Source: an uncultured Planctomycetales bacterium (GTDB lineage Bacteria > Omnitrophota > Gorgyraeia > Zapsychrales > CAYRXT01). Taken from it: a DNA stretch of 62,513 bases. Shown here in pieces: positions 1 to 62,513 of the stretch; the stretch's first letter is position 1; each line of letters begins with the position of its first letter. The stretch spans positions 1 through 62,513 of the forward strand of contig CAYRXT010000013.1 in NCBI GenBank assembly GCA_964428315.1, in the 5' to 3' direction. Under the pieces are notes generated by a model, which did no database searches, was not told the DNA's origin, and saw only the letters and a program-made list of their open reading frames with translations. Made by a program: the position numbers and the translations under genes.

Positions 1-220
1 CCGAATTCCGAATTTCAGACGGATCAGAAAAGTTTTTGTCATTGCGAGCGACCAAAGGGAGCGAAGCAATCTCATAAAGATTATTCTGACAAAGATTGCT
101 TCGGCGCTCCTTGCCGTCGCTTCTCGCAAAGACGGAGAGGGTGTACGGTCTAAGGATTCGATATTCAGGATTGGGAATTTATTCGGGATTTGGGATTTGG
201 CATTGGGAATTTTGAAATCC
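1..220 (+). repeat. Palindromic interspersed repeat (PR element), copy 1, truncated by window edge
   Basis: Matches 1681-1900 almost base for base. It contains the hairpin GTCATTGCGAGCGACCAAAGGGAGCGAAGCAATC...GATTGCTTCGGCGCTCCTTGCCGTCGCTTCTCGC. The ends are inverted: CCGAATTCCGAAT vs ATTCGGGATTTGGGATTCGG. Confidence 0.9.
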
Positions 221-3200
221 AAAGGAGGTGAAAAATGGTTACCAAAGCGGATTATTTCGACCTGGCGTTCGATCATGTCATCGAGATCGCCCGACTCGAC
301 TGCGTCTTCGCGGCAACGCGCGAGCGCCGGACGGGCAAGACCCGGCTCTTCCTTATTTACAACCATACCGGCAAGGTTTATTTTCGCGATTCTCTTCGTG
401 ACAGGTGGGTTGAGCTGGAGGAGAGGGAGTACAACATCTTCCGTTCCCTCGCCGACCACGCCCTCATGGACCGCAGGATTCCCCGCCTCAGGACCGACGA
501 TATCCCTGATCTCAACTGAGCCGACCGGATGGCAGGGGACTCTCTCGGGTTGCGCCGATCCCCTCAGGCTGGTCCCCCTGGATATGGCGGTTTTTATCAT
601 CTGCTCCTGGCTGATGCTGAAACTGGACATCTTCTTCCTTGAGCGCGCCGCACGCAGGCGGTCCAGGGGTTACGTCACGGGACTGGCCCTGAGTCTGCTG
701 TTGACGTCTCCGTTAGTCGTGAAGTCAGCGCGGTGGATCAAAGGCGGCGGTTCGCCGGTTATACTGCCGGAAGGAACCTGCGCGGCCGTCGCGGGGGCCA
801 TTGGCCTTTCGGTATCGGGTCTGGAGCGGCTGATTACCGCCGTGACCCTCGTGGCGGCCGTCCTGATGTTCGACCACCTGTTTTTCAGAAAGATCTGGAA
901 AAGGTTTAAAGAGAGCAACCCCACCGCGGCGACCATAAACACGTTCCGTTCCCTGGCGAGGTTTGGGTTTATCATGTCGTCCCTCGCGGTTTGTGTCGCC
1001 ATAACGGTCATGGGGCCGGCGGCGCGGGATTCATCCGATCGGGAAAAGGCCGCATTGTCACAGGACAGCCGTCCCGCGGCGTTTTGCTCAGCGGAGCAGC
1101 TTGAGGCCGCGCTTGTGCGTATCAGCCGCACGTGGCGGGAGGAAGGCCGGTACCTTTTTATCAGCTTCCCGGACGGGCTTAACCTTTTTATTCCGCTGGA
1201 CGAGGCGGTACGGGCCATGGGGCCGAGGCCGTCGGACTCCGATGACAACGTGAGCGGCGTGACGTTGTTCACGACCTCGGGCGAAGATATCAGCACCAGG
1301 GCTGTCCTTACCCACGTTACTGCGGTCGTCCGCGATGGGCGCGTTTGCGAAGTCCTGCTTCCGGCCGGTGACAGGCGTTCCCGCCGGACGATACTGGACA
1401 TGGTGGAGAAACATGAGACCGGCTACAGCCTGGAAGGCAGACTGGTTCTGCCCCAAAATGACGATGACGATCAGATTAAAACCGTCGTGGAAGAACACAT
1501 CAAACAAAACCTGGTCAACGAGCGAATGAAGGTGAAAAAGGTTGTCATCGCCGGAGGAAGTTCCGCCCTTCACGCCGGCTTCGGGTTTGGGTGGATCAAG
1601 AAACTGTGGGCGGGGATTGTGAGGCTGGTCGGGAAGGAATCAGGAATGACAACTGACAGATGCCGAATAAATGTCGAATCCCGAATTCCGAATTTCAGAC
1701 GGATCAGAAAAGTTTTTGTCATTGCGAGCGACCAAAGGGAGCGAAGCAATCTCATAAAGATTATTCTGACAAAGATTGCTTCGGCGCTCCTTGCCGTCGC
1801 TTCTCGCAAAGACGGAGAGGGTGTACGGTCTAAGGATTTGATATTCAGGATTGGGAATTTATTCGGGATTTGGGATTCGGTATTGGGGATTTTGCAGTCC
1901 GCCTTGAGGATCCTGAGGCGGATGGTCCCGGCTTTGAGCTCCCGCGCCGCGGCGGTGTCGGCGTTCCTGACGGTCTTTTTCTTCAGCAGTGACCTGCTGG
2001 CGGCCGGAAACCAGGCCGCGAGGTCTTCCGGCCTGGAAGGCCTGGTGATCCTGCTGGCGCTGGTATGTGCAATGATAGAAAAAGCTGACCCTAATGGACC
2101 GGAAATCCGCGAATTGACGAAAGACGAATTGATAGAAAAAGCCATAAGTATTATCAGAAAGCATAATGAAAATAAAGGGGTTATGCCAAGTTTTGCAAAA
2201 ATCACGGTCCAGCCGGGTATGGACTACAGAAGGTTAGAAAAATGTCTATGGGACGTCTATCAGGGCTTGAAGTTGGAGGACATTTCATACGAGACATTTT
2301 TGTTGAAGATCCAATATGACCAATTCATAGGCGAAGAGAGGTGGTCATCTCTGCGGGATTTGGTGAATAATGTTTCAGAAGAAGTTTTGTCGTATTATGA
2401 AAAGCACGGAAAACTAATGAGGCTTCGCGCTATTAAGGATATTTCACGTGGCCAATACAATTTTATATATCCCCTTTTGGCAGAACGATTAATAAAACTT
2501 TTTGCAGAAGAAAAGAAAATCAGCGGCCAGAATCAGGAAGACATTGTTGTTATGATTCACAAAAAATTTAAAACGACAACAACCCGGCCTAATGCCGAAG
2601 AAAACCGGATGACGCTTTCCGGAGAGGGGTGGAAAAAACTGTTTTATGAGGCTGGGGCTGGAGCCGGATTTGATGATAAGAAGTATTGGGATACCCTGGC
2701 AGGGGGGATTGACAATTTGCACGTGGCCGAGACCCAAAGAAAGGTCATTTTTGCCGCGGCGAAAATCTTGAAAAAAGACGTTGATCCCGATGGACTTATC
2801 CGCGATTTTATTTGCTCGAAGGCATTTGTTTTCGGCTTGATCGAGGAATTCGCCGGATGGTTTTGGAATAAGAAGGTTGCTGGTTCGGCGGAGTCTCCCG
2901 GGAAAGGAGATTCAGGGACGGGCGGTATAGATCGCCGTATTATTTATTGGTCGACATTGGTAAGCAATACTCCTATTAACATGGAAAAAGCGTGCTTAGA
3001 GGCGACTGTGGAGTCTCTTTTAAGGGTTAAGGAAAGGCCCGTTGTTATTCGTATCGACTGGCAGAAAGCCCTCCAGTTCGTTGAATCATCCAGTATTAGT
3101 CTTTTCCGGGTTGTTTCTACCATCGGGACGCTTTTAGGAGGATTCGAGGGGCCGGAGCGCAAGTTTTTTGATGAAGCGGATATTGTTCTCAAGAACAAGG

Positions 3201-6200
3201 TTATTTCTCAATTGAATCCACGGTTGTGTCAATCCTTGGCCGAAGAGTTTATTAGTATGCTGGGCTGTCGCGGGGAGGACCGGTCAGTGGACTTATTTAA
3301 AAATTTAATGGACGATGATTCACGCCTGCATGTCCTACAGGAAATTTTTAAAGATTTCGTGGCGTCCCCAAGTACCCCTTCGAGATCGGGATCTAGCCGG
3401 GAAGAGATTGAGAAGGAAGACAAACGGAAAGACATTTTGAGATATTTCCTGCAGAGATGGTCTGGGGTATCCGTATTCGTAAAGGAAAACGCGGGGCATT
3501 TCACATTGTCCTCGATCCTGGCCGAGTACTTTTTAACCCTGTTAGAGGAAGAAAACCTTGATATGACTGATGAGAGCTTTTTTCCTGCGCAAAGGATTGG
3601 GAAGTTAGGGGAATACTTGGGAGAATACGAAGAAATCATTGAGAACCAGGGGGAACGCGTCCGGAGGATCGGTGAAGAACAGCAGAAGGTTTTACGCGAC
3701 GGCTGGAAAAAGCTTGAGCTGGATGGTGTCATAGAGGACTCTCTTAATCAAATTTTGAACAATGAGACGGAACTGGGATTTGACCTTGTGTTTGCGCGGG
3801 AGGTCTACCGGCGTCTGTTCAACAAAGAACTCGTTATCAAGCATGTGAGTGAATTCTTGACGATCCTTCAGCCCTTTTTGGATGAAAGCCCCCAGAAAAG
3901 TTCTCTGGAAGATGCGGTGTATATCGCAGAAAGACATTGTACGAGTAGGGAGCATGCGTTTATTTTGGTGATTGTGCCTATGGTTTGGGCGGTCATTCGC
4001 TTGAAAATTTTAAAAAAGTTTAAAGAATTGGGATTCAGGATTTGGAATGTGTCCGGGGTTCGGGATTTGTTATTTGGGATTATAAGCGGGGCCTTCGGCA
4101 CGACGAAAAACTTCGGAGTCCTGATGCGGGACTTCGCGGCATTCTTCCGGCGGCTGAAGACCTCGCCGCCTGCGCAGCCGCTTCAGGCCTTCTTCAAGCG
4201 TGACAGGAATTCCCGGGGCGTGAGGACGGGGATATGGCGGAACTTTTTTAAAGCCAGAAGATGGCTGTCGCCGGAGATGAACACGTTTGTGTCAATGACG
4301 GCTTTAAGCATGGTTCTCGCGGCAGGCCTTTATTTCTTCGGCAATGTCCTCGCTGGAGACGGGGAAGCGTTTCAGCCTCCGGTCGATCATCTTTTCGCTC
4401 TGCTGTATTTTAAGGTCAAGGCTTATTTTGATCATGTCGGGGGCCTTCGTATGTTTGTTAACCAATATAGCATGCGCCCCGGGAATAGGCAAGACAAGCC
4501 CGCGGATGCTGGTTTTGAAAAAGGAAGAGCCGTCGCCCTTCGCGCCGGCTTCGGGTTTGGGTGGATCAAGAAACTGCGGGCGGGGGTGGCGATAGCGGCG
4601 TTCATGTTTACGGCCTCGCCGTGTCTGGCCGGCGTTATCATGCCGCAGAAACAGCAGGGGGTGTGGGAAGGCCGGGTGCAGGGGATGATTATGATAATCC
4701 TGGGATTGTTATGGATTTATAATATTTGGAAAAAGTGGATAAGAGAACGCAAGATTTTGGAGAAGATGCAAGAAGCGGACGATGATTCGGATTTTGACGT
4801 GATGTCCGCCTTCTCCGGCGCCGAGGCGCTCCTCGCCCTCCTCGCGGCGGTGAAGAGGCTGTGGACGGCGGGCCTGAAGCTGGTCGGAAAGAAATCAGGA
4901 ATGACAACTGACAGATGCCGAATAAATGTCGAATCCCGAATTCCGAATTTCAGACGGATCAGAAAAGTTTTTGTCATTGCGAGCGACCAAAGGGAGCGAA
5001 GCAATCTCATAAAGATTATTCTGACAAAGATTGCTTCGGCGCTCCTTGCCGTCGCTTCTCGCAAAGACGGAGAGGGTGTACGGTCTAAGGATTTGATATT
5101 CAGGATTGGGAATTTATTCGGGATTTGGGATTCGGTATTGGGGATTTTGCAGTCCGCCTTGAGGATCCTGAGGCGGATGGTCCCGGCGAGCGCCGTTCTT
5201 TTTGCCATGGTTTGGGCCGTGGTTCACTGTGCAATGAGGCTGTTTGATGCTGACATCCCATGGGCCGACGAGGCCGCGGCCATGGGGATGGCGGTTCTTC
5301 CGAACGCGATCCTGAAAGATCAAAATCTTAAAAATCGCGCCGCGCAGGTCGTCCGCAGGTTCACGAGCCTCTTCCAGGATAATTCTGATTCGGTGCGTGG
5401 GAAAATCTTCGGCGGGGATTTTGTCCCGAGGCGTTATTCTGTTTATCTGAAACAGCTTGAGAGCGAAAGCGCTTGGGTGGAAGGCGATAGGGTCCTTGTG
5501 GACACGTACTTGGCCGCATGGTCGTCCGGACAAAGTTCTGAGGTGCTGTCATGTATGTGCCGCCGGGCCTCCATAAGGTATCACCTTGATCCAATAGAGG
5601 ATACGCATCCGTCGCCCGGACAGGTGCGGCTTCTTATTTTCACTTTGAAAATCACGAAAGCAAAGTTTCGGGGAAAGACAGCGGCTGATATGCACCGTCT
5701 TTTTTCCAGAAAGGACAACGCGGCTTCCTACGCCCTGTTTGAGAACCGCGTCTCTATGGACGGATTCTCCTGGTTGATGAATGACGAACCCGTCCGCGGG
5801 CGGGTGCTGAAGGCCGTTTGTGCCGCGGGGAACAGGACAGGTAATTTCTCGCTTTTCCTTGAGATCACCGCTCTCGGCCGGGAGGCCGAACCGGACATCC
5901 GGGTTCTGCACAGATTCATGGATAACTGTGACGGTTCGGACGAAAACATCGCGGCCCCATTCTTGAGTCTGCACGGGGACGATTTCCGGTTATACCGTTA
6001 TGTCATGGATACATTGAAGGTGAAGGAGGAGCGGGACCGTGGATCCCGAATATGGTCGGCCGGGCCCTCGCAGATAATCCCTCTTGTGACGAGCGGCTGT
6101 GATTCGCGAGAGGTCCAGGACCGCGCCGAAGATGTCCGGCCGTTTCTGCGTGTCCTGGAGGACTACGCGTCGCAGGCCGGGAGGCATTACAAAAACGGCA

Positions 6201-9200
6201 GATTACTAAAGGCCGTTATGTTTTACCGCATGGCATGGGACATTGTAAGATATCTGGACGGTCCCGGAGAACGCGTCAGCCCCCGCGGGCTGTCGCCGGA
6301 CCGGGACACGGGGAAGGCCGTCGCAAAGGCGAAGGCCTTAACGGCGTTCGGCTATCTGCATTCACTCGATCGCGCGGCGCTTCATCAGGAGGCCTCCGTC
6401 CGTATTACCGGTATCCCCCGACAGAACCGCGGCGTTATCCAGATGGAACATGCGGTCGTACACCTGGCTGGTGTCCTGAGAAATCTGGGAGAATATGAAG
6501 AGGCCTTGAAGCTGATGACCGCCTCCCCGGACGGCACAGAACTCCGGAAAGATATTGTTTGGATTCAGGCCCGGGACAAGGCTTTCACGCTTCTCATCCG
6601 CGTCTGGACGGAAATGGCCGAACGCGAGACGCAAGACTGGGAGGGTTTTATGCGGCGTTTTAAGGCTTTGATGACAGAAAGGAGAATCAGCAGGACAAGT
6701 TATGAAAAGAGACATGAAGAGCCCTTTGCATTTTCCGGCCGGGAAAGCAGGGCGGCGTCTCCTGTATTTCGCGGCAAGATGGATATAGAGACATTCGAAG
6801 GTGACCGGCGGGAGGTCCAGATTCCTTTTCCGTTTTCCGATCCGCTGGAGGCGGAGAAAACAATTTACCTGTTTGTCTTTCGTCTTATGCAGGCGGAGGA
6901 CTTCAAGAAAAGGTTAATCGGCAGTATTGACTATGGGACGCTTGCCGCAGAAGAGATGGCCAGGATCCTCGGGCTGAAGCCGAAAGAGGTTGATATGGAG
7001 TTTAATGCGGTGACTTGTGAGCATCAGTTTTTAACAAATAGCCTTTTGGTAAAGGAATTTCTTAGGACTGTCTGGTGCAAGCCGGTTGTTCTCGTCCGGT
7101 CCGGCGGTAAAACCTATTTGATAAGCGGCCGGATCATACAGACAGACAAAGAAAGCGCCCGACAACTTTTCGCCAGGACGCTTTACGATCACCTTCGTCT
7201 TGTCCCGTCCTCTTGTCTGCCGGACATGACAGAAGATTTCGAGGTTACCCTGTTGCCGAAGGATTTTGAGCGTCAGATTGTTCCTCTTGGATTAAACGGA
7301 CAGGGCGGGCGGGCGTGTACCGTCATGAAGGCCGGACCGGAACATGTCCTGGCAGGATTGGGCAGGGGACCTGTCGGTGACATAGCCCCGGACTTCCTGG
7401 ATTACGTGACGGTCTCGCGTTTGAACACGCTCATTTTTACGGAAGCGCTTCCTGATCAGGTCAAAGAGTTGTATCGGCTTCTTGTTGCTTCCGACGTGAA
7501 GGTGTTATGGATGACGGAACCGGCTTTCGTTTTGACTAAAGACTTATGGGAGCATGATGTAGTAGGGTCCAAAAAGGAATATTTGGGGGTTTCGCGCATT
7601 ATTAAAGACTTGTTGGAGACAATCGCGCATGTTCATTTTTCCCGGTGGTATAAGCTGGGTGATGAGCTGACACTGTTAGTTTCCCGGGCCGGAGGTTTGC
7701 CCGGCAACGGCATTCTGTTATTCGGCACGCCCGGGGGATTTATCATGGAGGCGGGTCCGCGTTCACTGAAAGGCTCGGTATTAACGGAGGACGCGCAGGT
7801 GCCTGGTTATCCGGTGGACTGCCTTGTGAAACGGGTCGCTCCTTTATCCGTTACGGGCGGTGAGACCAAAAACCGGAAAGAGGACCTGGCCGGTCATGTG
7901 GCGCGGGTCATCCGCCGGGGAGGACATGTCTTCATCAGCGCTTGCGCGGTCGGAGCAGCCCAGGAATTTCTGTCACTCCTGATCCAAAAGCAAAAGCAGT
8001 CCGGTTATCCGGAGTTTTCCGTCTATGTCGCGGGATCGGTCTCAAGCATCACGGATTTAATAGACCGATATCCGAGGGTTTTCCCTGTCCGTCCCGGGGA
8101 GAGGCAGCGGCAGGATCCGGGACATGTCTTCATTCATGGCCGCGGCCCGGTGCGGAAACTGGAGGCCTTGCCAGATATGAATAATGTATTGGGTGTGCCG
8201 GGGGTTTTTGTGGTTCCCGAGGACTGGCAGAAAAATCCGAAGTGCCGTTGGATTTTCCGTCGGGTGGCGGCCGGAGCGAAGAACATGGTTATTGATGACG
8301 GCCCACCGGGGCGGGGCCTTCCGTCCTGGACCGGCGGGCCCGGGATGCCCGCTGCTGTCACCGCCGAGACTCTGAAGACCGACATTCTGCCTCCCGACAA
8401 CCCGCAGGATACCGCCGCATTTATCCGAAACGTTGACCCGGCCAGGGTCATCATTACCGGGGTGACACCGCGAGGGGCCGGGCTGTGGAAGAGGGTTCTG
8501 GAGGACGGGCTGAATGGCAGCTATCGCATTGAGACGGCCCGGCCTATGGTCCCGATGCATTTACCATTATCCGCTGACAGAAAGACGCTATTCGATTCTA
8601 TACTAATGACAAAGGAAAGGGGCAGTTTTTACGGTTTATTCATGGCCGCCGAAGCCGCGCTGGCGTTTTGGGTTGCCGGGGTCCTGCGCGCGGCGGCGCG
8701 GCTTCTGTCCCTGCCCGGTTTCGCCGCCTGGTTCGCGCGGACACACACGCGGTTTAAATCACGAATGACAAATAACAAATACCGAATTCCGAATTTCAGA
8801 CGGATCAGAAAAGTTTTTGTCATTGCGAGCGACCAAAGGGAGCGAAGCAATCTCATAAAGATTATTCTGACAAAGATTGCTTCGGCGCTCCTTGCCGTCG
8901 CTTCTCGCAAAGACGGAGAGGGTGTACGGTCTAAGGATTTGATATTCAGGATTGGGAATTTATTCGGGATTTGGGATTCGGTATTGGGGATTTTGAAATC
9001 CGCCGCCGGAGTGGCGAAAAACTTCGGCGTCCTCGCGCGGGACTTCCTGACATTCTTCCGCCGGCTGAAGACCTCGCCGCCTGCGCAGCCGCTTCAGGCC
9101 TTCTTCAAGCGTGACAGGAATTCCCGGGGAGTGAGGATAGGGATATGGCGGAACTTTTTTAAAGCCAGAAGATGGCTGTCACCGGATACGATGAGATCGG

Positions 9201-12200
9201 CGCCTTCCATGGCCGCTTCCAGGAAACGGTTATCCTGGGGATCTTCTTTGATGACGGTTAATGTCCTGCGCGGTCTGACCGCCACGGCCTGGATATGGAT
9301 TGTTTCGATGAGTCTGGCGGCGATGTCGCGGGTGATGACGGGATGGAACTTCGGTCTTGACAGGACGTCGATGAGTTCTTTGAGCGTGGCCGGCGATATG
9401 ATGAGCTTGAACCTGTTGTTTTTTAACGCTGAGATGATCTTTCGGTTTGTGGAATCTTTGAGCAGGCCGGAGATGAACACGTTTGTGTCAATGACGGCTT
9501 TAAGCATGGTTCTCGCGGCAGGCCTTTATTTCTTCGGCAATGTCCTCGCTGGAGACGGGGAAGCGTTTCAGCCTCCGGTCGATGTCACTCAAAATGCCGC
9601 TCCAGCGCCGGCGGAGGGTCTTCCGTTCAAGGTTGCGGAGAAGTCTGAGTTTCTGCGTAACCGGAAGGCGGTCAATCATCTTTTCGATCTGCTGTATTTT
9701 AAGGTCAAGGCTTATTTTGATCATTTCGGGTGCCTCCGTGTGTTTATTAAGCAATATAGCATACAGCCCGGGAATAGGCAAGACAAGGGACGCCGTCGCG
9801 TCTTCTGGGCGGCGAGGAAGCTGTGGGCGGCGGTGGCGATAGCGGCGTTCATGTTTACGGCCTCGCCGTGTCTGGCCGGCGTTATCATGCCGCAGAAACA
9901 GCAGGGGGTGTGGGAAGGCCGGGTGCAGGGGATGATTATGATAATCCTGGGATTGTTATGGATTTATAATATTTGGAAAAAGTGGATAAGAGAACGCAAG
10001 ATTTTGGAGAAGATGCAAGAAGCGGACGATGATTCGGATTTTGACGTGATGTCCGCCTTCTCCGGCGCCGAGGCGCTCCTCGCCCTCCTCGCGGCGGCGA
10101 GGAGGCTGTGGGCGGCGGGCCTGAAGCTGGTCGGGAAGAAATCACAAATGACAAATGCCAAATGCCGAATAAATGTCAAATTCCGAATTCCGAATTTTGA
10201 ACGGGATCGCAAAGACGGAGAGGGTGTACGGTCTAAGGATTTGATATTCAGGATTGGGAATTTATTCGGGATTTGGGATTCGGTATTGGGGATTTTGAAA
10301 TCCGCCGCCGGAGTGGCGAAAAACTTCGGCGTCCTCGCGCGGGACTTCCTGACATTCTTCCGCCGGCTGAAGACCTCGCCGCCTGAGTGGACCGGACAAT
10401 TCCCCATCCCTCCGCTGGGTTGCCTTGCCGTCGCCTGTCCTTCCGCGGCCGGACTCAACTCTATCACAGGCTATTGGCCCTGGGCGGCCGGCATCCTGCT
10501 GTGGCTGGCCATCCGCCGGGCTGTTTTGCGTAACCGCATTCCCTCCTTCCTTGTCACCAACCGTACCGAGAGGCTAGAGGCCGTGGCGGCTGTTCGGTCA
10601 GCCATCAGAGAAGAGATCCCCGTTGGCGGATGGCAGACGGCTCCCCTCAGCTATCTGCAGTATATCGAGTGGCTTTTGTCGAGGCTTCCCGAAGAGCGGA
10701 AAAATATTGAAGGCATCCGGATTATCCCATGGTATCTGAGCTTTGGGTTTCTTACCGGCCGTTTGGGAGGATTTTCGAAGAAGTCAAACGTGTTGACGGT
10801 CGTGTATCTTCCTTTCGGGAAAGTGTTCAAGAGGATTTGGGACCACGAGACAATCCATGTCCTGCTGGAGCATAATACGGAAGGCCGCGAGGAATTTACG
10901 GAGCACTGCTGGCATAATGTGGACCGCAGTAACCTGCGGACAGTTTTGAAGCTCGGCCTTGAGGCCTTAGCCTCATTTATTATTAACGTGGCAGCCCAAA
11001 CCTTATTGCTTTCAGCCGTTTTGGCGCTCGAAGCGACAAAGGCGCTGAGTCTTGCCTTTTTGGGGTATGCTGTCGTGTTCCTGTTCACGGATACATTATT
11101 GTTCCGTTTTCTGCTCCTGCTGTTCAATCAAAAAATCGAGGAGGTGAAGATGGGAGAGTCAGCGCATATGGTGAGCCTTTACGCGTTGACAAACCCCGAC
11201 GAGGATGGAGCGGAAACCGGAGCCAGTATCCTGGCTGGAGAGACAGGCGTGTTGACGGAGGGGCCTCTTTTCGATAAAGCGGAAACACTCAAACAAAAAG
11301 TCATTAAGGACGAAGATTTGTGCGCCCTGATGGAAGGGGCGAGACGTTTTGCGCATTCGGCCGTTTCCTATACCCTGACGGTCCGCTCCGCGCTCGTTGC
11401 CAGCTTTCTGGGCCATGCGTGGGTCATTACTTTCCTGGCGGCGGGGATGGATTCGGATTTTCACTGGATCACGCTGAAAGCGGCGCTGTACGCCGCGTTG
11501 GTCATGGGCTTTGCGATACATGCTTCCCGGTTCCGATCCCGTTTTGGGATCAACAGCCGCCTGGCGGGCGTAGTGAGGATTTGGCATGACGCCATGCGGC
11601 CGGTTGCTTTCATCGCGGTTTTACTTAATCTGTTTATTTCCAGCCCTGTGGAAATGAAGATCAGGGAATATCTTTCAGAAAAGTTGAGCAGTGATCCGAA
11701 TTATTATATCAATTTGAGGATCCCGGGGCACGAGACGGAAAGGCCGGCTCGATTGATCCTGACGGACTGGCGGATGACTCCCGAAGACGCGTCAAGGGTT
11801 GAGATTGAACCGGAAGAATTCCGTGAGGAGGCCTCAGAGAAGCCGGCGCGTCAGGCCGCGCCGCAGCGCGCGGGCTGTTACAGGTTTGAGTGGCCGCGCA
11901 GTTATAATGTTGGCGGCAGATATATTCCGGATCCTTTTGCCAAGGACAGTTCGGATTTTGCGGAAGCGGGCTTTGCCGTGACCCTCATGGAATTCGGACC
12001 GGAGGACGACAACCTATGGCCTCCTCCTTACGGGAAGGCGGTCCTGCTGGACGATTTGTCTGAGTTCGAGGGAATACGGATCTCAGTCGAGAAAGCGGAT
12101 CCCGGTACAATAGAGTTGATTTTTACTCTTGTGGTGTATTGTAACGAAAGGGGCACCAGATATAGGTTTGCTGAAATTGTGCTGCCCTTAACATTGTCCG

Positions 12201-15200
12201 GCGAGGACAACCAGGTCCTGTATGTCCCCGTGGAAAGCCTGCCTAATTGCAAATGGAATTACGGTATAAAACTTTATTATTTGCAGTTCTTTTTCAGTCC
12301 GGCCGGCCAGACGCCCATCAGGGCCAGGATTAAAGAGATCGAGTTTGTGCCCAAGGCGGGGACGGCTTGCTCGGAGAGCCGCCCGATATCGTCTCAACCG
12401 GGTGTGTCAGAAGCGGAGACCGGAAAAGAAAACGCGTCCGCCCTTTACGCCGGCTTCGGGTTTGGGTGGATCAAGAAACTGTGGGCGGCGGTGGCGATAG
12501 CGGCGTTCATGTTTACGGCCTCGCCGTGTCTGGCCGGCGTTATCATGCCGCAGAAACAGCAGGGGATGTGGGAAGGCCGGGTGCAGGGGATGATTATGAC
12601 AATCCTGGGATTGTTATGGATTTATAATATTTGGAAAAAGCGGATAAGAGAACGCAAGATTTTGGAGAAGATGCAAGAAGCGGTCGATGATTCGGATTCA
12701 GGCTTGATGTCCGCCTTCTCCGACGCCGAGGCGCTCCTCGCCCTCCTCGCGGCGGCGAGGAGGATGCGGGCAAAAGTCTTGTCATTGCGGGGAGCCGCCG
12801 GGACATTGTCGCGCGAGATCGCCGTCACTGCGAGCGACCAAAGGGAGCGAAGCAATCTTTGTCAGAATGTAATTAATGTAATGAATGAGATTGCTTCGCT
12901 CTTCCGGACTCGCAATGACAGAAAGATTAATAAGCTGCTGTCCAGATTCTTGTCATTGCGAGCGACCAGCGGGAGCGAAGCAATCCCTGCTATTGTGAAG
13001 GCTTCTTCCCCTACGATTCGGCATTTGTCTGGCGCTTGGGATTCGGTATCGGGGATTTTGAAATCCGTGATGGCAGTTCACTTTATCGGGAGGCTGCCGG
13101 GCGCTTTGTTAACCTCTATCCGTGGCTGGTGGAGACAAAGACCGCGTAAACCGATAGCCTCCTTCCACTTTATTAGGTCAGGAGGGTGCGAAAGCTCGCA
13201 GTATTCGGATGCGTATTATGCTTCTTCTTTTGGACTGCTGGAATTCCTGCAATCGGCAAGTGGGCTCTTGCATATGGCACGTGTTGTTATTCAACGACTT
13301 GGCGGGGAAGAGAATCGGGTGACAATGGATCATGTCCATTATACAAGTAATGATGTGCAAAAAATTGATGAGCTGGCGGCTCATTTTAAAGAGAAAAATG
13401 CGGCCTGTACTGTACGGTATTGGAAGCAAGGAGGAAAGGCCGTCAGGGTTATGAGTCTTGAGAAGCCTTTGCAGCACGGTTCAGAACTTGGGGTGAAGAC
13501 GGTGATGATAACAACCCTGGACGGCGGGGAGGCGTGTGGAACGGAAGGGGGTTCATGGCAGGCCGGATTTTATTACAGGGGAAAGGCCGGGGATCTGAAA
13601 TTGCCGGAACCGTGGGGGGGTGTCGCTTATAAGGGATCGTCGTATGAGGTGAAAAGGAGAAATCCTTATGCGATTGAGGTGGAGAGCGGGGCAGACTTGT
13701 TCGTTATCAGAAGCCTGCCGCTGTGCGGAAAAGAGAAAGAAATCAAATTGATCAAGGCTCACATGGGCATGGTCAGGAAGATTGCTGCTAGTTCTGGCGG
13801 GAAAAAAAGAGCGGGCTTCAACGAGCTTGTTGCCGCGGGAAATTTGGGGCTGACAGAGGCCGCAAAAGCATTCGCCGTGGAAATAGGAGTTCAGTTTTAC
13901 ACATTCGCAGTCAGACGAATAAAGGGTGCAATAACAGATTATCTGAGAGCCCTAAGCTGTGGGAAAAGGAAGAGTCATGAATGGGTAACAAAGGACCTTA
14001 ACCCCTTTATAGAGCAGTTTGCCCAGGAGAACAGCCGGTTGCCGACGGAACAGGAGATCCTGGAAGGCTTGGGATGCACCGAAGCAGAGTCGCGCTACAG
14101 GATTGAAACCAGTTCTTTTCAATGGCCTAGTTTGCAGGATTCCTTTAGGAATAGCAAAGGCGAGGAATGCAGATCAATAACAATGGCGGATCGCATTCCT
14201 GACGGGTCTGTCGAATCACCCCTGGCTCACATGATTCATAAGGAGGATATGCGAAGAATTTGGAAAGCTTTTAAAGAAGTGGGAGGCAGGCAATGGAAGA
14301 GAAACAAGGAAATATTTATAATGTATTTTTACGACGGCCTCCCGTGTTGGGAAATCGCAGATTATTTTGGGCTAACAGAATCTGCGATCTCTTTGATTAT
14401 TACAAAAATAATAAAAAGTCTGCGAAAAACACTGGGGCGTGAAGACAGGGACGACGATCGGCCCGGCAGTCTGGATGCGACAGCCATGAAGGATTTGGCG
14501 GCGCGGCTTCTAGAGAGCGCGCTGAGAGGCTTCGGACAACCGGACCGCACTGTTCAAGAGGAGCGGGAAGGAATAATCCTAGAGCTTTTTTCAAATGTGA
14601 AAGGTGAAAAATCGAAAAGAGCCTTGATGATCATGAAAATGTTATATTTAGACGAATTACCACCGAAGCAAATCGCAAATCATTTTGAACTGACAACAGC
14701 CTGTATCAATGAGATTCGGGAGCGAATGATAGATGGAATAGAGATGGAAATATGGCGCCGGGAAGACAATAACGAGGAGGCCCAGAGTTTGACAGGACTA
14801 TTCCCCGTTACCGGCGACGGGCTGGCGCTCGCCATGGCCGCGGCGGTCATTCTCCTGGCGCGGCTGGTGTACGGTGTGCGCGCGGCCGGGAGATCCGCCG
14901 CGCTGGCGTACGGCATGGATGTCTTTGTCAAGGCGGTCAACGCGTTCAGCCTGCGCGGGGCGGACAGAGAAAGACTGGCCCGCGCGCGCGTCCTGGTCTT
15001 GGCCGGCGGCAGCGGCGCGGGGCGCTCCCATATCATCAGTCTTCTGATCCGGAACGGGAACGCCGGCCGCGGCAGGGAGGCCCGGCACCTGAGGCTCGTC
15101 ACCAGTCGGCCGGCCAGGAGCAGTGGAGATGACAAGGAATGCGTGTCCATGTTCCGTTTCCTTAGGATGATGTTCGGCGGAAAGCTTGTGGACGTTCGGT

Positions 15201-18200
15201 TCCATTGGGAAGAGCTGGCCTTCTACGCGTTCAGGAAAGACGCCATCCTCCGGGACGGCGAGGATGAGACCGTCTGGCTCGCGGACGTACTGAGGTTCGA
15301 AAGCTTCCTCAAACTCCAAAAGATCTTCCCGGACATCGCGCTGGTCTACATCTCTCCGTTGCCCGTCGAAGAGCTGGAAGACGGCACGGCGGCGCTGGAG
15401 GCCGAGCTGACCCGGCGGCTCAGGGCCAGAAACGGCGGCATGACAGAGGAAAAGATCAGGCGCAGGGTCCGTCTGAGCACGGTTGAGTATCACAAGTTTA
15501 TGCGGCATATGGATGAAAACAGCGGTGGCGTTATCTTCATCAACACGATCCCCGGCCCGGGCGGATGGACGATGAAGAGAAAGATAGCTGATTTTCAATA
15601 TTCATTTCCCGCGGCTGTCCGGCCTCCTGCGCCACTGCCCAACGGGCCGGAGGCTTCAATGACCCGGGACGGGCCCAATGCCGGGACACATCCGGCGAAA
15701 AGATGGGTGCGGGAGCCCGGCACCACCGGATTTCATGAAGGCCACGATCCCTTGGCCCATCATTGGCAGACTGCAAACAATAACTATATAGGTTTGAACC
15801 ATGCTTTTGACGCCGTGAATGGCAATGACGATAGAACTCCCGCCGGGGGGGGGATTGATCCTCTTGAGGGCGTCCGGATGATCCGGGCGGCGTTGCAAAA
15901 TCAGTATGGGGATGCGTCTCGGCGGGACGCCGCCCGCCCGGACGGTCTTCACAGCCTCCTCTTCTGGGGCGGGATGCTGGCGACCGGGGTCTTCTTCTAC
16001 CGGCTGGTCCGCTCTTCGCTGTTAAAGGACTCCCTGCTTGCAGGGCGAGTTCTCACTCCGACGGTATCGCTGGCCGGGCTGGCCGACCGGTTGTTATTCA
16101 GGAAGATCTGGAAAAAGTTCGGTGAAGGCAGCGCCTTCGTGGCGACCTTGAACACGTTCCGCAGGATACCAAGGCTCGGGCTCTTCCTTTTGGTCATCTC
16201 GGTCACCGTCGCGCTGGTGGGGAGCGCGCTTTCGGAGAGAAAGAAGAGATCTGTCCCCCTGCAACCTTCCGAGAAGGTTGAGCCCGCGCGGAGCGCCGGC
16301 ACGGCGCTGAGGAGCGTTGATGCGCTGAGCGGGATTATATTTATTGGATTAGCGGCTGTGACCGTGCTCATGGCCTGGTTCATTTCGATGTGGGAAGACT
16401 GGAAGCCGGCCCGGAATCGAGCGGTGAAGTATGCGCGCGTTACGGCAGGGTACGTGGTCATTATCGGTCTGGGCGCGTGGCTGACGGATAACTTGTTGGT
16501 GATGTTACTATTCAGTTCCATCGGGTATGGATTTTTATATACATGCTTCAGTGAATCGGGAGACCGTGGAGCAAATGACAGAAAGGTTTACACAATTTCC
16601 GATTTGATATTTGGGATTGGGAATTTGTCCGGTGCCCGGGATTGGTTTTTTGGGATTTTGAAACCCGCCTTGAGGCCCCTGAGGCGGATGGTCCCGGCTT
16701 TGAGCTCCCGCGTCGCGGCGGTGTTGGCGTTCCTGACGTCCTTCTTCTTCAGCAGTGGCCTGCTGGCGGCCGGAAAGCAGGCCGCGCGGTCTTCCGGCCT
16801 GGAAGGCCTGGTGATCCTGCTGGCGCTGGGCGTGGTCGCGCTGGGGATGTGCCGGTATCATGCGGCAAAACATGAAGAGGCGCCGGGCCTCTCCGACGCC
16901 GGCGAAATCATGCGCCGCTGGCTTTACGGACGGGAAGACCTCCTCGCGCTTGCCGGCGGTGACCCTGAGACCGCCGAGGAGGTCCTCAAGACCATCGAAC
17001 TGCTTACTGCCGAAGCGTCCGCGGCCGGAAAGAATATCCACCGGCAGGACGAAGAAGGGTTCACGGGAGGCCGGGACCGGTTCAGCGATGATTTGCAAAA
17101 CCGGGGTGTTTCCCATGGAGAACTGCTCGCGCTCATGGAGTCTCTCAGGGAGAAGGCGGGCCGGGCCGCCGCAACCGGGGTGGAGTTGAAGGAGGAGGCG
17201 GACCTTGTGCGGTGCGGCCAGGAGGCGCGGACCGGCGTTTCCATGGCGAAATGGATCGGATGGGCGACTATTGCCGCCGGGCTCGTCGGACTGTTCGGCC
17301 GGCTGGCGCTGACCGGAGTGGTGGAAGCCGGCATCTCCTGGCTGGCCGGCGGCATAATTGTGGCCGGGGCGGCCACAATTCTCCTGGACCTGGTTGTCCT
17401 GGGGTGGGACGGTTTCGTTGAGAGCCTGAAGGAAGAGAGGGCCGCAGAAGATGTCGGGGCGCGCCGGACAGCCCGGCTCCTGAAACGGGCATGGCTGACC
17501 GCCGGTATTATATTCCTGGCCTTTCTGGCGGCGGCGGCCCTGACGGTGCCGGGGCTGTTCGGGGAAGCGATGGCGGGTGCGGCCGTCCAGAAGGCGGCCC
17601 TTTCGTCGGGCATCCTGGGGCTTATCAGCATCGCCGTGGGCCTGGGATACGGGAAGGCCGAAGAAGGCTCGTTCCAGATGAACCTGCGTTCGGGGCGGTT
17701 GTTCCGGTTCTTCATGTTCGCCTTGGCGGCGTTCATGGCCGGGTCCATGGCGGTGGACGCGGCACAGGCCTTTGCCGCGGGCCCGGCGCCGGACGCGGAC
17801 GGCGGCGCGGATGGTGACGGGGGGCTGTCCCCGTCAGGGGACCCCTCCGAAGGAGGAGCTGTGTCTCCGGCAGAAGGCGTAGTGCCGGCTGTGGACCGTC
17901 CTCAGCCGGACACGCCGCGGGAGGAGGGGCCGGAAGAAATGGCGCTGACGGATGCCCCTGCGAAAGAGCCGGTCTCCGTTGTTACGCAGGAGACGCGGGT
18001 GAATCCGGCGCGGGATCCGGAAAAGGCGTCCGCTCCGGACGGTACCAAAGGCACAGTCATATCCGCCGGAGATGACGGCGGGGATTCCTTCCTGTCGCGC
18101 GCGCGGGATTTTGCCGCGAAGGTCTGGGACGGCGTTTCTTTTGTGGGCACTGCCGCGGCGGCCGAATCCTCCCCGGCGGCCGGGCCGCCTTCGCCGCCTT

Positions 18201-21200
18201 CGTCGCCTTCGCCGCCTTCGCCGCCTTCGCCGCCGAAGAGGCCGCGGGATAAACCGACGGACGCTGCCGTTGCTGTGGAAGCGTCCGGCTTCTGGGCCGC
18301 TGTGGCCGCGGACAGTGTTTACACGCCGGAGGACGTCGCGGCGATGGCGCGCGCGACCGACAGCCTGTCTCGCGCCAAGGGCATCCCGGACAGCGATGAC
18401 TTTAAAAGACTTCTGGCGCCGGCCCTGCGGACGGCCGCGACCGCGCGGGATTCGCTGGAGGCGGTCAGGGCGCTGTTCATTCCGCGGGGAGCGGGGGCAT
18501 TCAGATTTCCGGACGAAGAGGTCCTTATTGCGCGGTCTTTTGCCGCGCCGCTGGCCGCGACAGACAGCCTGCGAAGGATCTTGAGCGGAGAACAAGGGCC
18601 GGAAGGGGTCATGAAATTTCTGGGCGAAGGCTGTATTTTAACCGTGTCTTACGCCGGGGCGGGCCTGTCGCGCGTAATGGCGGAGACCGTGTTTGAAACA
18701 AGGGTCATGGTTCTTCCGGGGCATAAATGTCTTTTCGTGAGCCTGCCCGGAGAAGAAGAGGGCTTTGTCTTTGACAGCGCGCTGCTGACAACCGGCCCGG
18801 TCTTCCGGCTGGCACAGTACACGGAGAAGAAAGGGGAGACCTATTATTTCAAAGAGGCGTTTTATGCCGATGTCATGCCCCGGGGATGGGCCGCCTACAA
18901 GGAGAATTTTACGAAATTCCGGCTGGGCCGCGTTGAGAAATTCGCGGCAGGCCTTTTATACAATATCGGCCGTTATTACGACGATCATTATGACTTTGCC
19001 GCGGGGGCGGATTATTTCAGGCGCGCGGCGGCGGTTGATCCGTCGGACACCGAGGCGTGGCATTTGCTGGGCGAAAGCTATCTGGAATTAGGAGAGCTTG
19101 GGCACGCGGTCGCATCCTTCAGGCGGGCCTTCGCGGCGGATCCGCTCCTGCTGGAGAGCTGGCATAACCGCGGAACCATGTTCTATCTTTCTGAGAATTA
19201 TGATAAAGCCGCGAAATATTTCCTGGTTGTTTCGTCGGTGGCCCCGAAGACCACCGGCCTCTGGTCCTCCCTGCTGGCCGGCGGCGTTTACACGCCGGAG
19301 GACGTCGCGGCGATGGCGCGCGTGACCGACAGCCTGTCTCGCGCCAAGGGCATCCCGGACGCGGATGACTTCAAAAGACTCCTGGCGCCGGCCCTGCGGA
19401 CGGCCGCGACCGCGCGGGATTCGCTGGAGGCGGTCCGGAGTGGCTTCGCGTCCCGGGGCCTCGAGCAGAGGCTCGGCGCCTACAACACCGGCGAACACAT
19501 GTCCCTCTTAAAGACCTTCGCCCTTCCGCTGGTCCGGGACGACAGCCTCCGGGCGTTGCTGGCGGACCCGGCCCGGACGGACGAGATAATACAGTACACA
19601 GGCGAGGGCTGTGCCCTGGACATGCCTTACGCGGGCATCACGCTGAAACGTTTTCTGGAAGGCACCGGATTCGAGGTCAGGAAGATGAAACTGCCGGGGC
19701 ATGTCTGTCTGTATGTCATCCTCGGCAAGGATTACGGCTTTATCTTTGACAGCTTTCACCGGACGTTCAGCCCGCCTTTCCGTCTGGAGCAGTACACGGA
19801 ACGCAGAGGAGAGGGGCCGGTTTATTATTTCAAAGAGGCGTTTTACGCCGATGTCATGCCCCCGCGCTGGAAGCCCTTTAAAGACGAGCTGATCAAATTC
19901 ACCCTCAGCGATCCCGGGACGTTTCCCGGGGACATGCTGGGGAACCTGGGCGTCGGCTATTATGCGGACAAAAATTATGAAGTGTCGCTGGAATATTTCG
20001 CGGCGGCTTCGGCCCTCGATACGGCCGAAATGGTTTACGCGCGCGGGACGGCCGACGCGTATTATGCGATGAAGGAAAACAAGCAAGCGGAGTATTACTA
20101 CCGCAGGACGCTGGAACTGGACCCCGATAACCTGGGGGCGTTGTACACCATCGGGGTGATGTTCGAGGAAGCGCGTGAATATGAACAGGCGGCGGCATTC
20201 CTTTCAAGGGCCCTGGACCAGGACTCCACGGACGCGGACGTGCTCGAATACCTGGGGCGCGCCTGCTATTACCTGGATCAGGATACACTGGCGGCCGGAT
20301 ACCTTGAGAGGGCCCTCGCCGAGGATCCCGCGGACGCGGACGTCCTCAAGTATCTGGGCATGACGTATTATTATATGGATAGAAACGCGGAGGCGGCGGG
20401 GCTTCTGGAGAGGGCCGCTGCCGCCGACCCCGCGAGTTCCCTGATCCGCAGGTTCCTCGGGCTGTCCTATTTCTATCTGGACCGGCCGGCGGAGGCGGTC
20501 ATCCGGCTGAAGCAAGCCCTGGACATGGTCCCCGGCGACGTTGAGGCCCTGACCTATCTGGGGCACGCGTATCTGGAGATGGATGAATACGAAAAGGCGG
20601 CGGATTATTTCGGGAAAGCCCTGGGGATAAACCCCGGCGACAAAGACTTGCAGGAATACTGGATCGAGGCCCGGGGGAAAATGAACGAGGATGGCTGGGC
20701 CGCGCCCGGTTCCGCGGATTCTTCCGGGACGAATAACCCGCGGGATTCGTCAGACACCCGGCCCTATTCGCTCCTCACCGTGCCGGAAGGCTGGGATGGC
20801 GGCGGGCGGACCTTCCGTTCGGCCGTGGTCCGGCGGGACGGGCGCTATGTCATCCAGGAAGAGGATCCGGCCGGGCTCTTCGCGGACATCCAGGCGGCGC
20901 TGGACCAGCTGCCCCATCTCTGGCCCCGGGACGTGCGCGGCCCGCCGGAGAGGTTCGAACTTGTGCTCACCGCCGACCGCCGGAAGCTGGGGACCGACCC
21001 CGAAACCGGCCTGACCTGCGCCGCATCCTCCGATACTGTCCGCGACACCGTTTATGTCCACCCGTACCTCAGGGACATCCTGCACGACACCGGAAGAGAG
21101 CTGAAAAACAACGAGAGTTTACGCGAACTGTACTTCCTGTTTTCCGGCCATATCGGTGTCAGTCATATTTACTACGACATATTTACCGAGAATCTCCTGA

Positions 21201-62464: not shown

Positions 62465-62513
62465 TAGTGACAAAAGTAACATGAAAGAAAAATGACAAAA
62501 AAATAGATTTTGT

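Follow-up and report, generated by a model that had tools for sequence, protein, structure and literature searches.

Palindromic repeats of intergenic type lying in frame at module junctions of a giant open reading frame in an Omnitrophota contig

The stretch of DNA analyzed here, called the window below, is the whole of contig CAYRXT010000013.1 (62,513 nucleotides, forward strand; NCBI GenBank assembly GCA_964428315.1) from an uncultured Planctomycetales bacterium that GTDB places in the Omnitrophota. It holds a giant open reading frame (ORF), and the first 17 kb of this ORF contain repeated copies of a palindromic element of about 256 nt. An earlier note on this DNA, made from the sequence alone, had described the element as similar to a miniature inverted-repeat transposable element (MITE) and as always phase-locked to the giant frame. 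We examined the copies of the element, their reading phase and flanks, the encoded peptide, and the occurrence of related repeats in other genomes.

A frame scan of the whole contig showed that frame 2 (codon starts at positions congruent to 2 mod 3) is free of stop codons between bases 2 and 62461. This corresponds to at least 20,820 codons, whereas frames 1 and 3 contain 842 and 883 stops, respectively. The GC content by codon position followed the coding pattern GC3 > GC1 > GC2 in each 3-kb bin along the contig. The giant frame terminates at a triple stop (TGA TAG TGA, 62462-62470), and a further TAA lies two codons past it. Since the window is the entire contig and the frame is already open at base 2, the 5' end of the giant ORF is missing. 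A recoded genetic code was rejected because frame 2 lacks all three stop codons and frames 1 and 3 hold normal numbers of them. Chance as the cause of the whole ORF was rejected as well. Pfam matches of cytoplasmic type in the frame comprise sigma-70 regions 2 and 4, FBPase and RelA_SpoT; TPR, BNR, fn3, CARDB, Peptidase_S8, FG-GAP and NosD domains were also matched, together with four FlgD_ig / Por_Secre_tail-like domains of C-terminal type. The hydropathy scan of the giant frame gave 97 transmembrane-like peaks.

Copies of the element were mapped by BLASTN of positions 1638-1920 against the window, with a repeat finder, and by alignment of the junctions. The census covers the 62.5-kb contig and a 1,434-bp contig from the Logan assembly. 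The giant frame and the copies are as follows.

2..62461, + strand: giant open frame (frame 2), from the stop scan, GC content by codon position and Pfam
1-213, + strand: copy 1, left arm cut at the contig end (BLASTN 1-220, 97.3% identical to copy 2)
1638-1893, + strand: copy 2, full, with heptamer left arm, central hairpin (1713-1812) and heptamer right arm
4018-4086, + strand: right-arm relic, 76-78% identical to the full copies, with a type Y right flank (BLASTN 4018-4081)
4893-5148, + strand: copy 3, full (BLASTN match 4893-5175)
8756-8993, + strand: copy 4, hairpin complete, left arm shorter, left flank of type B (BLASTN 8770-9004, 97.4%)
10139-10295, + strand: copy 5, outer arms intact, central hairpin deleted (BLASTN 10140-10197 and 10207-10306)
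12778-13067, + strand: variant element (partial or variant BLASTN match 12819-13067)
16560-16686, + strand: right-half relic, from the end of the hairpin right arm through the heptamer arm (BLASTN 16601-16686)

All eight copies and relics lie on the + strand within 17 kb. The three mapping approaches confirmed the positions given in the earlier note, and its core offsets of 1680, 3255, 7101 and 8502 nt are correct and all multiples of 3. Copies 2 and 3 are identical as had been claimed, but over 283 bp rather than about 297 bp; a wider match extends over 335 bp at 96.7%. The four full copies do not differ at all over the first 158 nt of the core, a stretch that takes in the inner left arm and the entire hairpin, and copy 4 equals copies 2 and 3 through core position 214. 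The copy reported at 10140 is real but turned out to be an exact deletion derivative. Precisely 99 nt (33 codons) are gone, with the left part at offset 8502 and the right part at offset 8403. Because this copy keeps the last 9 nt of the hairpin, it represents a deletion derivative and not an empty site.

The element is a composite of two layers, in which outer heptamer arms enclose a central hairpin of about 100 nt. The outer arms extend over up to 57 nt at 74% complementarity; the inverted-repeat finder gave 17-25 nt at 80-82%. They are degenerate arrays with a period of 7, built from AAATGAC and CGAATTC on the left and from ATTCGGG and ATTGGGG on the right. In copy 2 the left arm of the central hairpin (1713-1812) reads GTCATTGCGAGCGACCAAAGGGAGCGAAGCAATC. 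The nested inverted repeats described earlier were borne out by these arms, by the central hairpin and by folding, which predicted a long nested hairpin with an RNA free energy of −111.3 kcal/mol (z = −6.6 versus shuffled sequences). The predicted DNA fold had a z of −4.6. The arms of copy 5 still pair (57 nt at 74%), with a predicted fold of −51 kcal/mol and z = −3.1. The variant at 12.8 kb contains a complete hairpin (12819-12924), a second left arm (12947-12985) and a heptamer right arm (13015-13067); its translation in the giant frame is 'VTASDQRERSNL...EIASLFRTRNDRK...SLRATSGSEAIP'.

Among the three sense frames of the element only the one used by the giant ORF is free of stops, as had been claimed, but one antisense frame is open as well, so that two of the six frames are viable. 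Because of the stops in the other two sense frames, any other phase would be lethal to the ORF. The statement that the element is always phase-locked holds for the core offsets. An exception is the second hairpin arm of the variant (12947-12985), which has an offset mod 3 of 2 and is read as SLRATSGSEAIP instead of VIASDQRERSNL. This arm lacks the TAA that canonical copies carry just after it in that frame. Phase locking also proved not to be special to the element. The direct-repeat families in the contig, 17 out of 17, have spacings divisible by 3, and phase-locked families unrelated to the element occur at 18-20, 26, 32-36, 39-40 and 44-48 kb. Any repeat in a single uninterrupted ORF must keep phase, hence the spacing divisible by 3. 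For the element, the phase lock follows from the no-stop constraint and from the copies being parts of in-frame segmental duplications. It is the outcome of a no-stop filter together with in-frame duplication and conversion, and not a property of the element.

The encoded peptide was examined for signs of selection at the protein level. In the elements the codon-usage score of frame 2 drops to about 0.05-0.15, as compared to a contig mean of 0.27. No homologue of the peptide encoded by the element and its flanks was present in 5.8 billion proteins, and an exhaustive HMMER search with the peptide of the junction at 4520-5401 gave none among 1.84 billion representatives. For the 1,187-aa module encoded at 5177-8737 no protein homologue was found either. 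Comparison of relics with full copies gave ratios of nonsynonymous to synonymous substitution rates (dN/dS) of 0.46-2.0, based on counts too small to be decisive. Stretches of borderline hydrophobicity in the element are SNLIKIILTKIASALLAVA (by the hydropathy scan) and LIFRIGNLFGIWDSVLGIL (averaged by hand). There is no sign of protein-level selection on the element peptide; the sole constraint detected is the absence of stops and frameshifts. The proposal that the repeats behave as in-frame spacers between modules therefore stands as to their location, in frame at junctions between transmembrane-flanked modules. A selected spacer function is not supported in view of the missing homologues, the low codon score and the dN/dS values.

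Alignment of the junctions revealed two types of left flank (A and B) and three types of right flank (X, Y and Z), with a further right flank at 13.07 kb. These are combined in mosaic fashion as A+X, A+Y and B+Y. The elements sit at module junctions, between a transmembrane-like block and a signal-peptide-like start, of which two examples are the following.

4520..4892, + strand: left-flank block (T + A) with transmembrane-like segments (direct-repeat families D3, D9 and D15)
1906..2080, + strand: type X right flank, with GAGG..ATG and then a start that resembles a signal peptide or transmembrane segment (MVPALSSRAAAVSAFLTVFFFSS...)

The left-flank block has paralogues at 9817-10138 and 12424-12771 and a shortened one at 1562-1637, with 94-96% identity and common junction repeats. 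The type X flank has a paralogue at 16687-16852 and a short version after copy 3, and the GAGG..ATG with MVPALSSRAAAVSAFLTVFFFSS... is read in frame after copies 2 and 3 and after the 16.6-kb relic. The type X flank joined to the latter relic matches that of copy 2 at 89% identity; relic and copy 2 with flank have 229 nt in common at 89%. On a larger scale, the block at 4018-4950 is paralogous to 8929-10197, and each block is bordered by a relic or copy on the 5' side and by a copy on the 3' side. Copies 4 and 5 have 179 identical nt in common, right flank included. Tracts of 283, 179 and 118 nt without a single mismatch are embedded in surroundings of 77-96% identity. Judged from these alignments, the patchwork of identical tracts would be due to gene conversion combined with unequal recombination. 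Of the recent spread or gene conversion suggested earlier, recent homogenization is supported by the identical tracts within diverged flanking blocks. The uniform orientation points the same way. If independent insertion had two viable configurations, five copies in one orientation would be an outcome of about 1/16, and the uniform + orientation therefore fits duplication and conversion better than independent insertion.

The central hairpin has relatives in many other genomes. At least 119 stretches in species-representative genomes match a 29-nt core pattern, TGCGAGCGACCNNNGGGAGCGAAGCAATC, exactly. The matches listed include Chloroflexota, Planctomycetota, Omnitrophota, Patescibacteria, Aminicenantes, Pseudomonadota and one metagenome-assembled genome (MAG) of Pacearchaeota; one core match is on a viral contig, where it is intergenic. 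In these genomes the core makes up the left arm of a ~90-nt hairpin that ends in CTCGCAATGAC and is often nested in lineage-specific outer inverted repeats. The family, 'GTCATTGCGAG...CTCGCAATGAC', consists of the left arm GTCATTGCGAGCGACCnnnGGGAGCGAAGCAATC, a variable loop and a complementary right arm, with a total length of about 75-140 nt. The copy in the window belongs to it, having the exact family left arm and a degenerate right arm (GATTGCTTCGGCGCTCCTTGCCGTCGCTTCTCGCAAAGAC). Among the matches listed, the right arm is present in 106 of 122 copies, and the family is mostly intergenic, with no consistent genic position. In the same set, 103 copies are complete, of which only 32 have lengths that are multiples of 3, and each frame is free of stops in 40-55% of the copies. 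The core hairpin family is not adapted to coding.

Even so, frames open for at least 100 codons on both sides were found for 10 of the 122 copies among the matches listed. Pfam analysis identified five in-frame copies inside conserved genes: two in SecA and one each in ValRS, a MiaB-like radical-SAM enzyme and LpxB. The SecA pair is from a Parcubacteria MAG and the LpxB copy from an Omnitrophota MAG. The conserved-gene loci that carry the hairpin are L024:1113-4091 (− strand), L101:41-2818 (+ strand), L055:5951-7438 (+ strand) and L080:1863-3101 (− strand). Comparison of the L024 SecA with Thermotoga SecA (PDB 3din) showed that one copy, following TIATNMAGRG, forms a clean insertion of some 66 residues, and that the second copy lies within an extra segment of similar size. 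In the recorded genes the downstream arm reads EIASLPxVARND, which is the same phase as KIASALLAVASRKD in the window. No literature describing the 'GTCATTGCGAG...CTCGCAATGAC' family was found by hairpin sequence or peptide motif in a limited library.

For the outer arms, the right-arm pattern specific to the element gave 0 matches in JGI metagenomes. A looser arm pattern matched 85 JGI metagenome loci, all of which are simple (GGGATTY)n heptamer arrays. These arrays are common across diverse environmental metagenomes, many directly 3' of stop codons, and an inverted partner is present within 250 nt in 21 of 86. Arms of this type are thus common intergenic material; because such sequence is of low complexity, homology of the arms to the arrays cannot be claimed. 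The earlier assignment of the element to a normally intergenic palindromic type is supported. Rfam gave no match for the whole window at gathering thresholds, and a permissive Rfam search of the element produced only chance microRNA-like matches (E 0.3-1).

Copy 1 differs from the others in what follows it.

235..519, + strand: 94-aa ORF in frame 1, with AAGGAGGTG-N5-ATG directly after copy 1

The AAGGAGGTG-N5-ATG motif is the best Shine-Dalgarno (SD) site in the window and close to perfect; SD site and ORF together span 222-519. At 235-519 frame 1 outscores frame 2, and the giant frame reads through this ORF out of frame (+1). The 94-aa ORF was called as a gene in both the source and the Logan assembly. 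It had no Pfam or NCBIfam match and no homologue besides itself.

The reliability of the contig in this region was also considered. The contig begins inside the left arm of copy 1. In the Logan assembly of run SRR7048225 a 1,434-bp contig is identical to positions 168-1601 of the window and ends in repeats on both sides. This Logan contig (L120) confirms the junction from copy 1 via the SD site to the ORF as well as the unique module. The warning that the repeats are an assembly hazard was therefore justified, with the contig starting inside one copy and the independent contig breaking at repeats at both ends. Since all copies are in phase, a wrong join stays in frame, and frame continuity is no evidence for the order or number of modules between copies 1-4.

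The explanation that we prefer, with a probability of roughly 0.55, is that intergenic-type, two-layer palindromic DNA lies in frame at module junctions of the giant gene and is kept by a filter that forbids stops and preserves the frame. Intergenic-type palindromic DNA would have become part of the reading frame at these junctions. It could persist because the element has one stop-free sense frame and every change kept the frame, as in the 99-nt deletion, whereas any out-of-phase copy would cut short a gene of which the 45+ kb further downstream evidently have to be translated. Multiplication and homogenization within the gene would have occurred mainly through in-frame segmental duplication, unequal crossing-over and gene conversion, and the pattern would not need independent transposition. 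The element would be translated as a linker of about 85 aa without detectable protein-level constraint. The main consequence may be the provision of about 0.26-0.6 kb of near-identical, in-phase homology that allows frame-safe duplication, deletion and swapping of modules. A non-coding origin is suggested by the low codon score, the lack of homologues, the non-coding lengths of the core family, the intergenic-type arrays, and the SD site with the frame-1 gene after copy 1.

Several points weigh against this explanation. No orthologous empty site was found, the databases containing no homologues of the flanking modules, and as a result capture of a spacer is not distinguishable from insertion into an existing ORF. 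Four near-identical copies beside at least four different right flanks are also expected from recent transposition. The perfect conservation of the hairpin across copies could reflect selection on nucleotide structure, and translation through a hairpin with a predicted stability of −111 kcal/mol is assumed. The gene call on the Logan contig starts at ATG 584. If the gene started there, copy 1 would be intergenic, and the open frame upstream would be a coincidence of about 1%, a rough estimate from a 1-in-3 phase and the out-of-frame stop-free rates. Furthermore, the order and number of modules between the identical copies are given by the assembly and by no other source.

An active non-autonomous transposon, either a true MITE or similar to the Rickettsia palindromic elements (RPEs), could also have inserted repeatedly and independently, with only open-phase insertions being seen. 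This we consider unlikely. It would agree with four copies that are 97-100% identical next to flanks that are far more diverged, with the number of different flanks (four or more on the right, three or more on the left), and with the terminal inverted repeats. The core family elsewhere enters conserved genes in frame, and it occurs across phyla and on one viral contig. Against transposition speak the single orientation of all eight copies and relics despite the open antisense frame, and the common flanks that several copies carry within larger paralogous blocks. Moreover, the contig has no transposase or cognate insertion sequence, the outer-arm pattern of the element is absent from JGI metagenomes, and no target-site duplication is visible at any junction (inspection by eye of the aligned junctions of copies 2-5; since the element ends are fuzzy, one of 2-3 bp may have escaped notice).

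It is still less probable that the repeat is real but its arrangement partly artefactual, due to threading of the assembly through near-identical repeats of 283-335 bp, which would make the module number and order, and perhaps the continuity of the first 17 kb with the rest, unreliable. The start of the contig inside a copy, the short length of the Logan contig from the same run with its repeat-bound ends, and the ability of in-phase copies to make wrong joins look in frame agree with such an artefact. However, every junction between a flank and an element includes unique sequence, and an independent assembler recovered one of these junctions exactly. Assembly cannot generate diverged relics and variants, and misjoins alone cannot yield a stop-free frame across all unique segments. 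We regard it as very unlikely that the palindromes are selected nucleic-acid signals at module boundaries, for which RNase III-type processing or stabilizing hairpins, ribosome pause sites for module folding or membrane insertion, and recombination signals are candidate roles. Such a signal would fit the very stable predicted fold, the absence of any hairpin substitution across four copies, the precise placement between a transmembrane-like block and a signal-peptide-like start, and the lack of protein-level conservation of the encoded peptide. Yet copy 5 lacks the hairpin and two relics lack the left half while the frame continues, the 12.8-kb variant has another architecture, most module junctions in the remaining 45 kb have no element, no Rfam family matched, and the hairpin family has no consistent genic position elsewhere.

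The preferred explanation, retention of intergenic-type DNA by a no-stop filter, invites comparison with known repeat classes. The element is MITE-like in being an intergenic-type palindrome of small size (about 256 nt, no transposase of its own) with terminal inverted repeats in the form of period-7 arms of up to 57 nt; neither of its two open frames, the read-through frame and the antisense one, encodes anything with a homologue. The status of a true MITE is not supported in view of the missing target-site duplication and partner transposase, the single orientation and the confinement to 17 kb. Small size, inverted-repeat ends, hairpin potential, near-identical copies and occasional in-frame intragenic copies are features in common with ERIC, BOX, Correia and REP/BIME repeats and classical MITEs. 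Intragenic ERIC copies with open frames have been reported (Delihas 2007, cited in PMC10969869). Unlike classical MITEs and intergenic palindromes, the element has no demonstrated target-site duplication, cognate transposase or genome-wide dispersal, and in place of a defined terminal inverted repeat it has arms made of heptamer arrays.

The closest likeness in behavior is to the RPEs, described as in-frame intragenic palindromes and selfish DNA at permissive sites (Ogata et al. 2000, as summarized in PMC10969869). They are short palindromic repeats in frame inside genes that add a peptide segment. Similarly, frame 2 runs without a stop through copies 2-5 and the variants, which have coding-like sequence to either side, and the core hairpin family behaves alike in SecA, ValRS, LpxB and the MiaB-like gene. 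The likeness concerns the functional class, and no sequence relationship is expected. In contrast to RPEs, the element is a two-layer composite of about 256 nt, its copies are in one gene and one orientation with flanks in common and homogenized by conversion, and its core family spans many phyla rather than one genus. The ~90-nt GTCATTGCGAG hairpin would be a cross-phylum counterpart of RPEs, apparently undescribed, that colonizes essential genes in frame. This would mean that a widespread small hairpin repeat can live in essential genes far beyond Rickettsia.

Giant proteins of Omnitrophota have been termed 'Archaeovorins' or a 'multi-enzyme metabolic cluster' (bioRxiv 10.1101/2023.11.21.568195; 10.64898/2026.06.07.730766). 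The class is described as having tens of thousands of residues, numerous transmembrane regions and often a divergent SecA DEAD domain. The ORF of over 20,000 codons with its many transmembrane-like segments is similar, as is its combination of cytoplasmic-type enzyme domains (FBPase, RelA/SpoT, sigma-70, guanylate-kinase-like) with extracellular-type ones (S8, FG-GAP, BNR, fn3, TPR). A SecA_DEAD domain was not found in the available part of the giant ORF. Neither paper, searched by terms, yielded anything on palindromic repeats lying in frame, on embedded antisense genes or on relics of intergenic DNA.

Besides the element, the giant frame passes through other DNA that does not look natively coding in this frame. 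Frame 2 is not the best + strand frame at two places in 62 kb (121-570 and 36.8-37.3 kb). The first includes the 94-aa ORF; the second and three further stretches are as follows.

36806..37323, − strand: intact hicB-hicA toxin-antitoxin operon (Pfam HicA_toxin 1.3e-16, HicB_lk_antitox 1.7e-11)
48673..48710, + strand: perfect hairpin with a 17-bp stem (CAAAGGGGCCAGTCCCC gaaa GGGGACTGGCCCCTTTG), identical at 44230-44267 inside a 236-bp repeat
58840..58990, + strand: low-coding spacer with a 20-bp-stem hairpin and, in degenerate form, the right half of a core-family hairpin (GTTGCTTCGCC...TTCGCGATGAC)
60660..60790, + strand: low-coding spacer with degenerate copies of a second GC-rich hairpin type (GTCATCACCGCG..GCGGGGATC / GGTCCCCGCTTGCGCGGGAAC)

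The hicB-hicA operon has its own SD sequence (GGAGGTG-N6-ATG) and a 4-nt gene overlap, and frame 2 of the + strand is open across it. It lies in a low-scoring spacer of 0.9 kb, after a C-terminal sorting-type domain that ends in ...GKKKLLLL. Unlike Pfam, NCBIfam gave nothing for HicA or HicB, and an exact-sequence look-up of HicA found no other contig. The hairpin at 48673-48710 is situated some 50 nt past a FlgD_ig / C-terminal-sorting-type domain and resembles a former gene end with a terminator that would be read through in frame. The spacer at 58840-58990 is followed by an ATG and a transmembrane-like start, and the one at 60660-60790 also precedes transmembrane-like or start-like sequence. 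The second hairpin type is presumably ubiquitous.

In the contig's own DNA, stop-free windows of the lengths of the individual non-native stretches are 1-5% events when read out of frame or antisense. At this rate a survivorship filter suffices for each stretch and no special mechanism is required. Going by appearance, the giant frame seems to thread DNA resembling former gene ends, spacers, gene starts and foreign genes. From the accumulation of such stop-free stretches it can be argued that uninterrupted translation of the frame is what is selected. Wholesale incorporation of spacers and neighboring genes by the giant gene is plausible. We put forward only tentatively, as possible but short of probable, that the giant gene is a read-through fusion of a whole gene neighborhood, spacers included, in which the palindromes are fossil but still-recombining intergenic spacers and some embedded genes may be self-expressed. 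If true, giant bacterial genes would arise by absorbing neighboring genes along with intergenic repeats, and in-phase repeats would then serve as recombination handles for module shuffling. Some parts of the giant ORF would be merely stop-free and not selected protein segments, and in giant-gene assemblies copies of the element would flag the least trustworthy spots.

Some other observations concern the ORF downstream of the elements and its composition. FlgD_ig / Por_Secre_tail-like domains normally occupy protein C-termini. The four copies in the giant ORF are internal, at about 26.0-26.2, 32.2-32.4, 36.3-36.5 and 48.4-48.6 kb, and two of the four end in ...GKKKLLLL. Those at 32.4 and 36.5 kb have a tract of 127 nt in common with 98% identity. 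At 26366-26629 there is a perfect in-frame tandem duplication of 132 nt (44 codons, 100% identity). The sigma-70 regions 2 and 4 matched by Pfam are embedded between transmembrane-like segments in the region of 13.7-14.5 and about 14.9-15.6 kb, where a guanylate-kinase-like P-loop segment was recognized by eye only. The GC content varies along the single ORF from 0.44-0.46 (2001-4000 and 50001-52000) to 0.61-0.63 (16001-24000), swings that suggest a mosaic origin of the modules. The GC skew is positive over the entire giant ORF.

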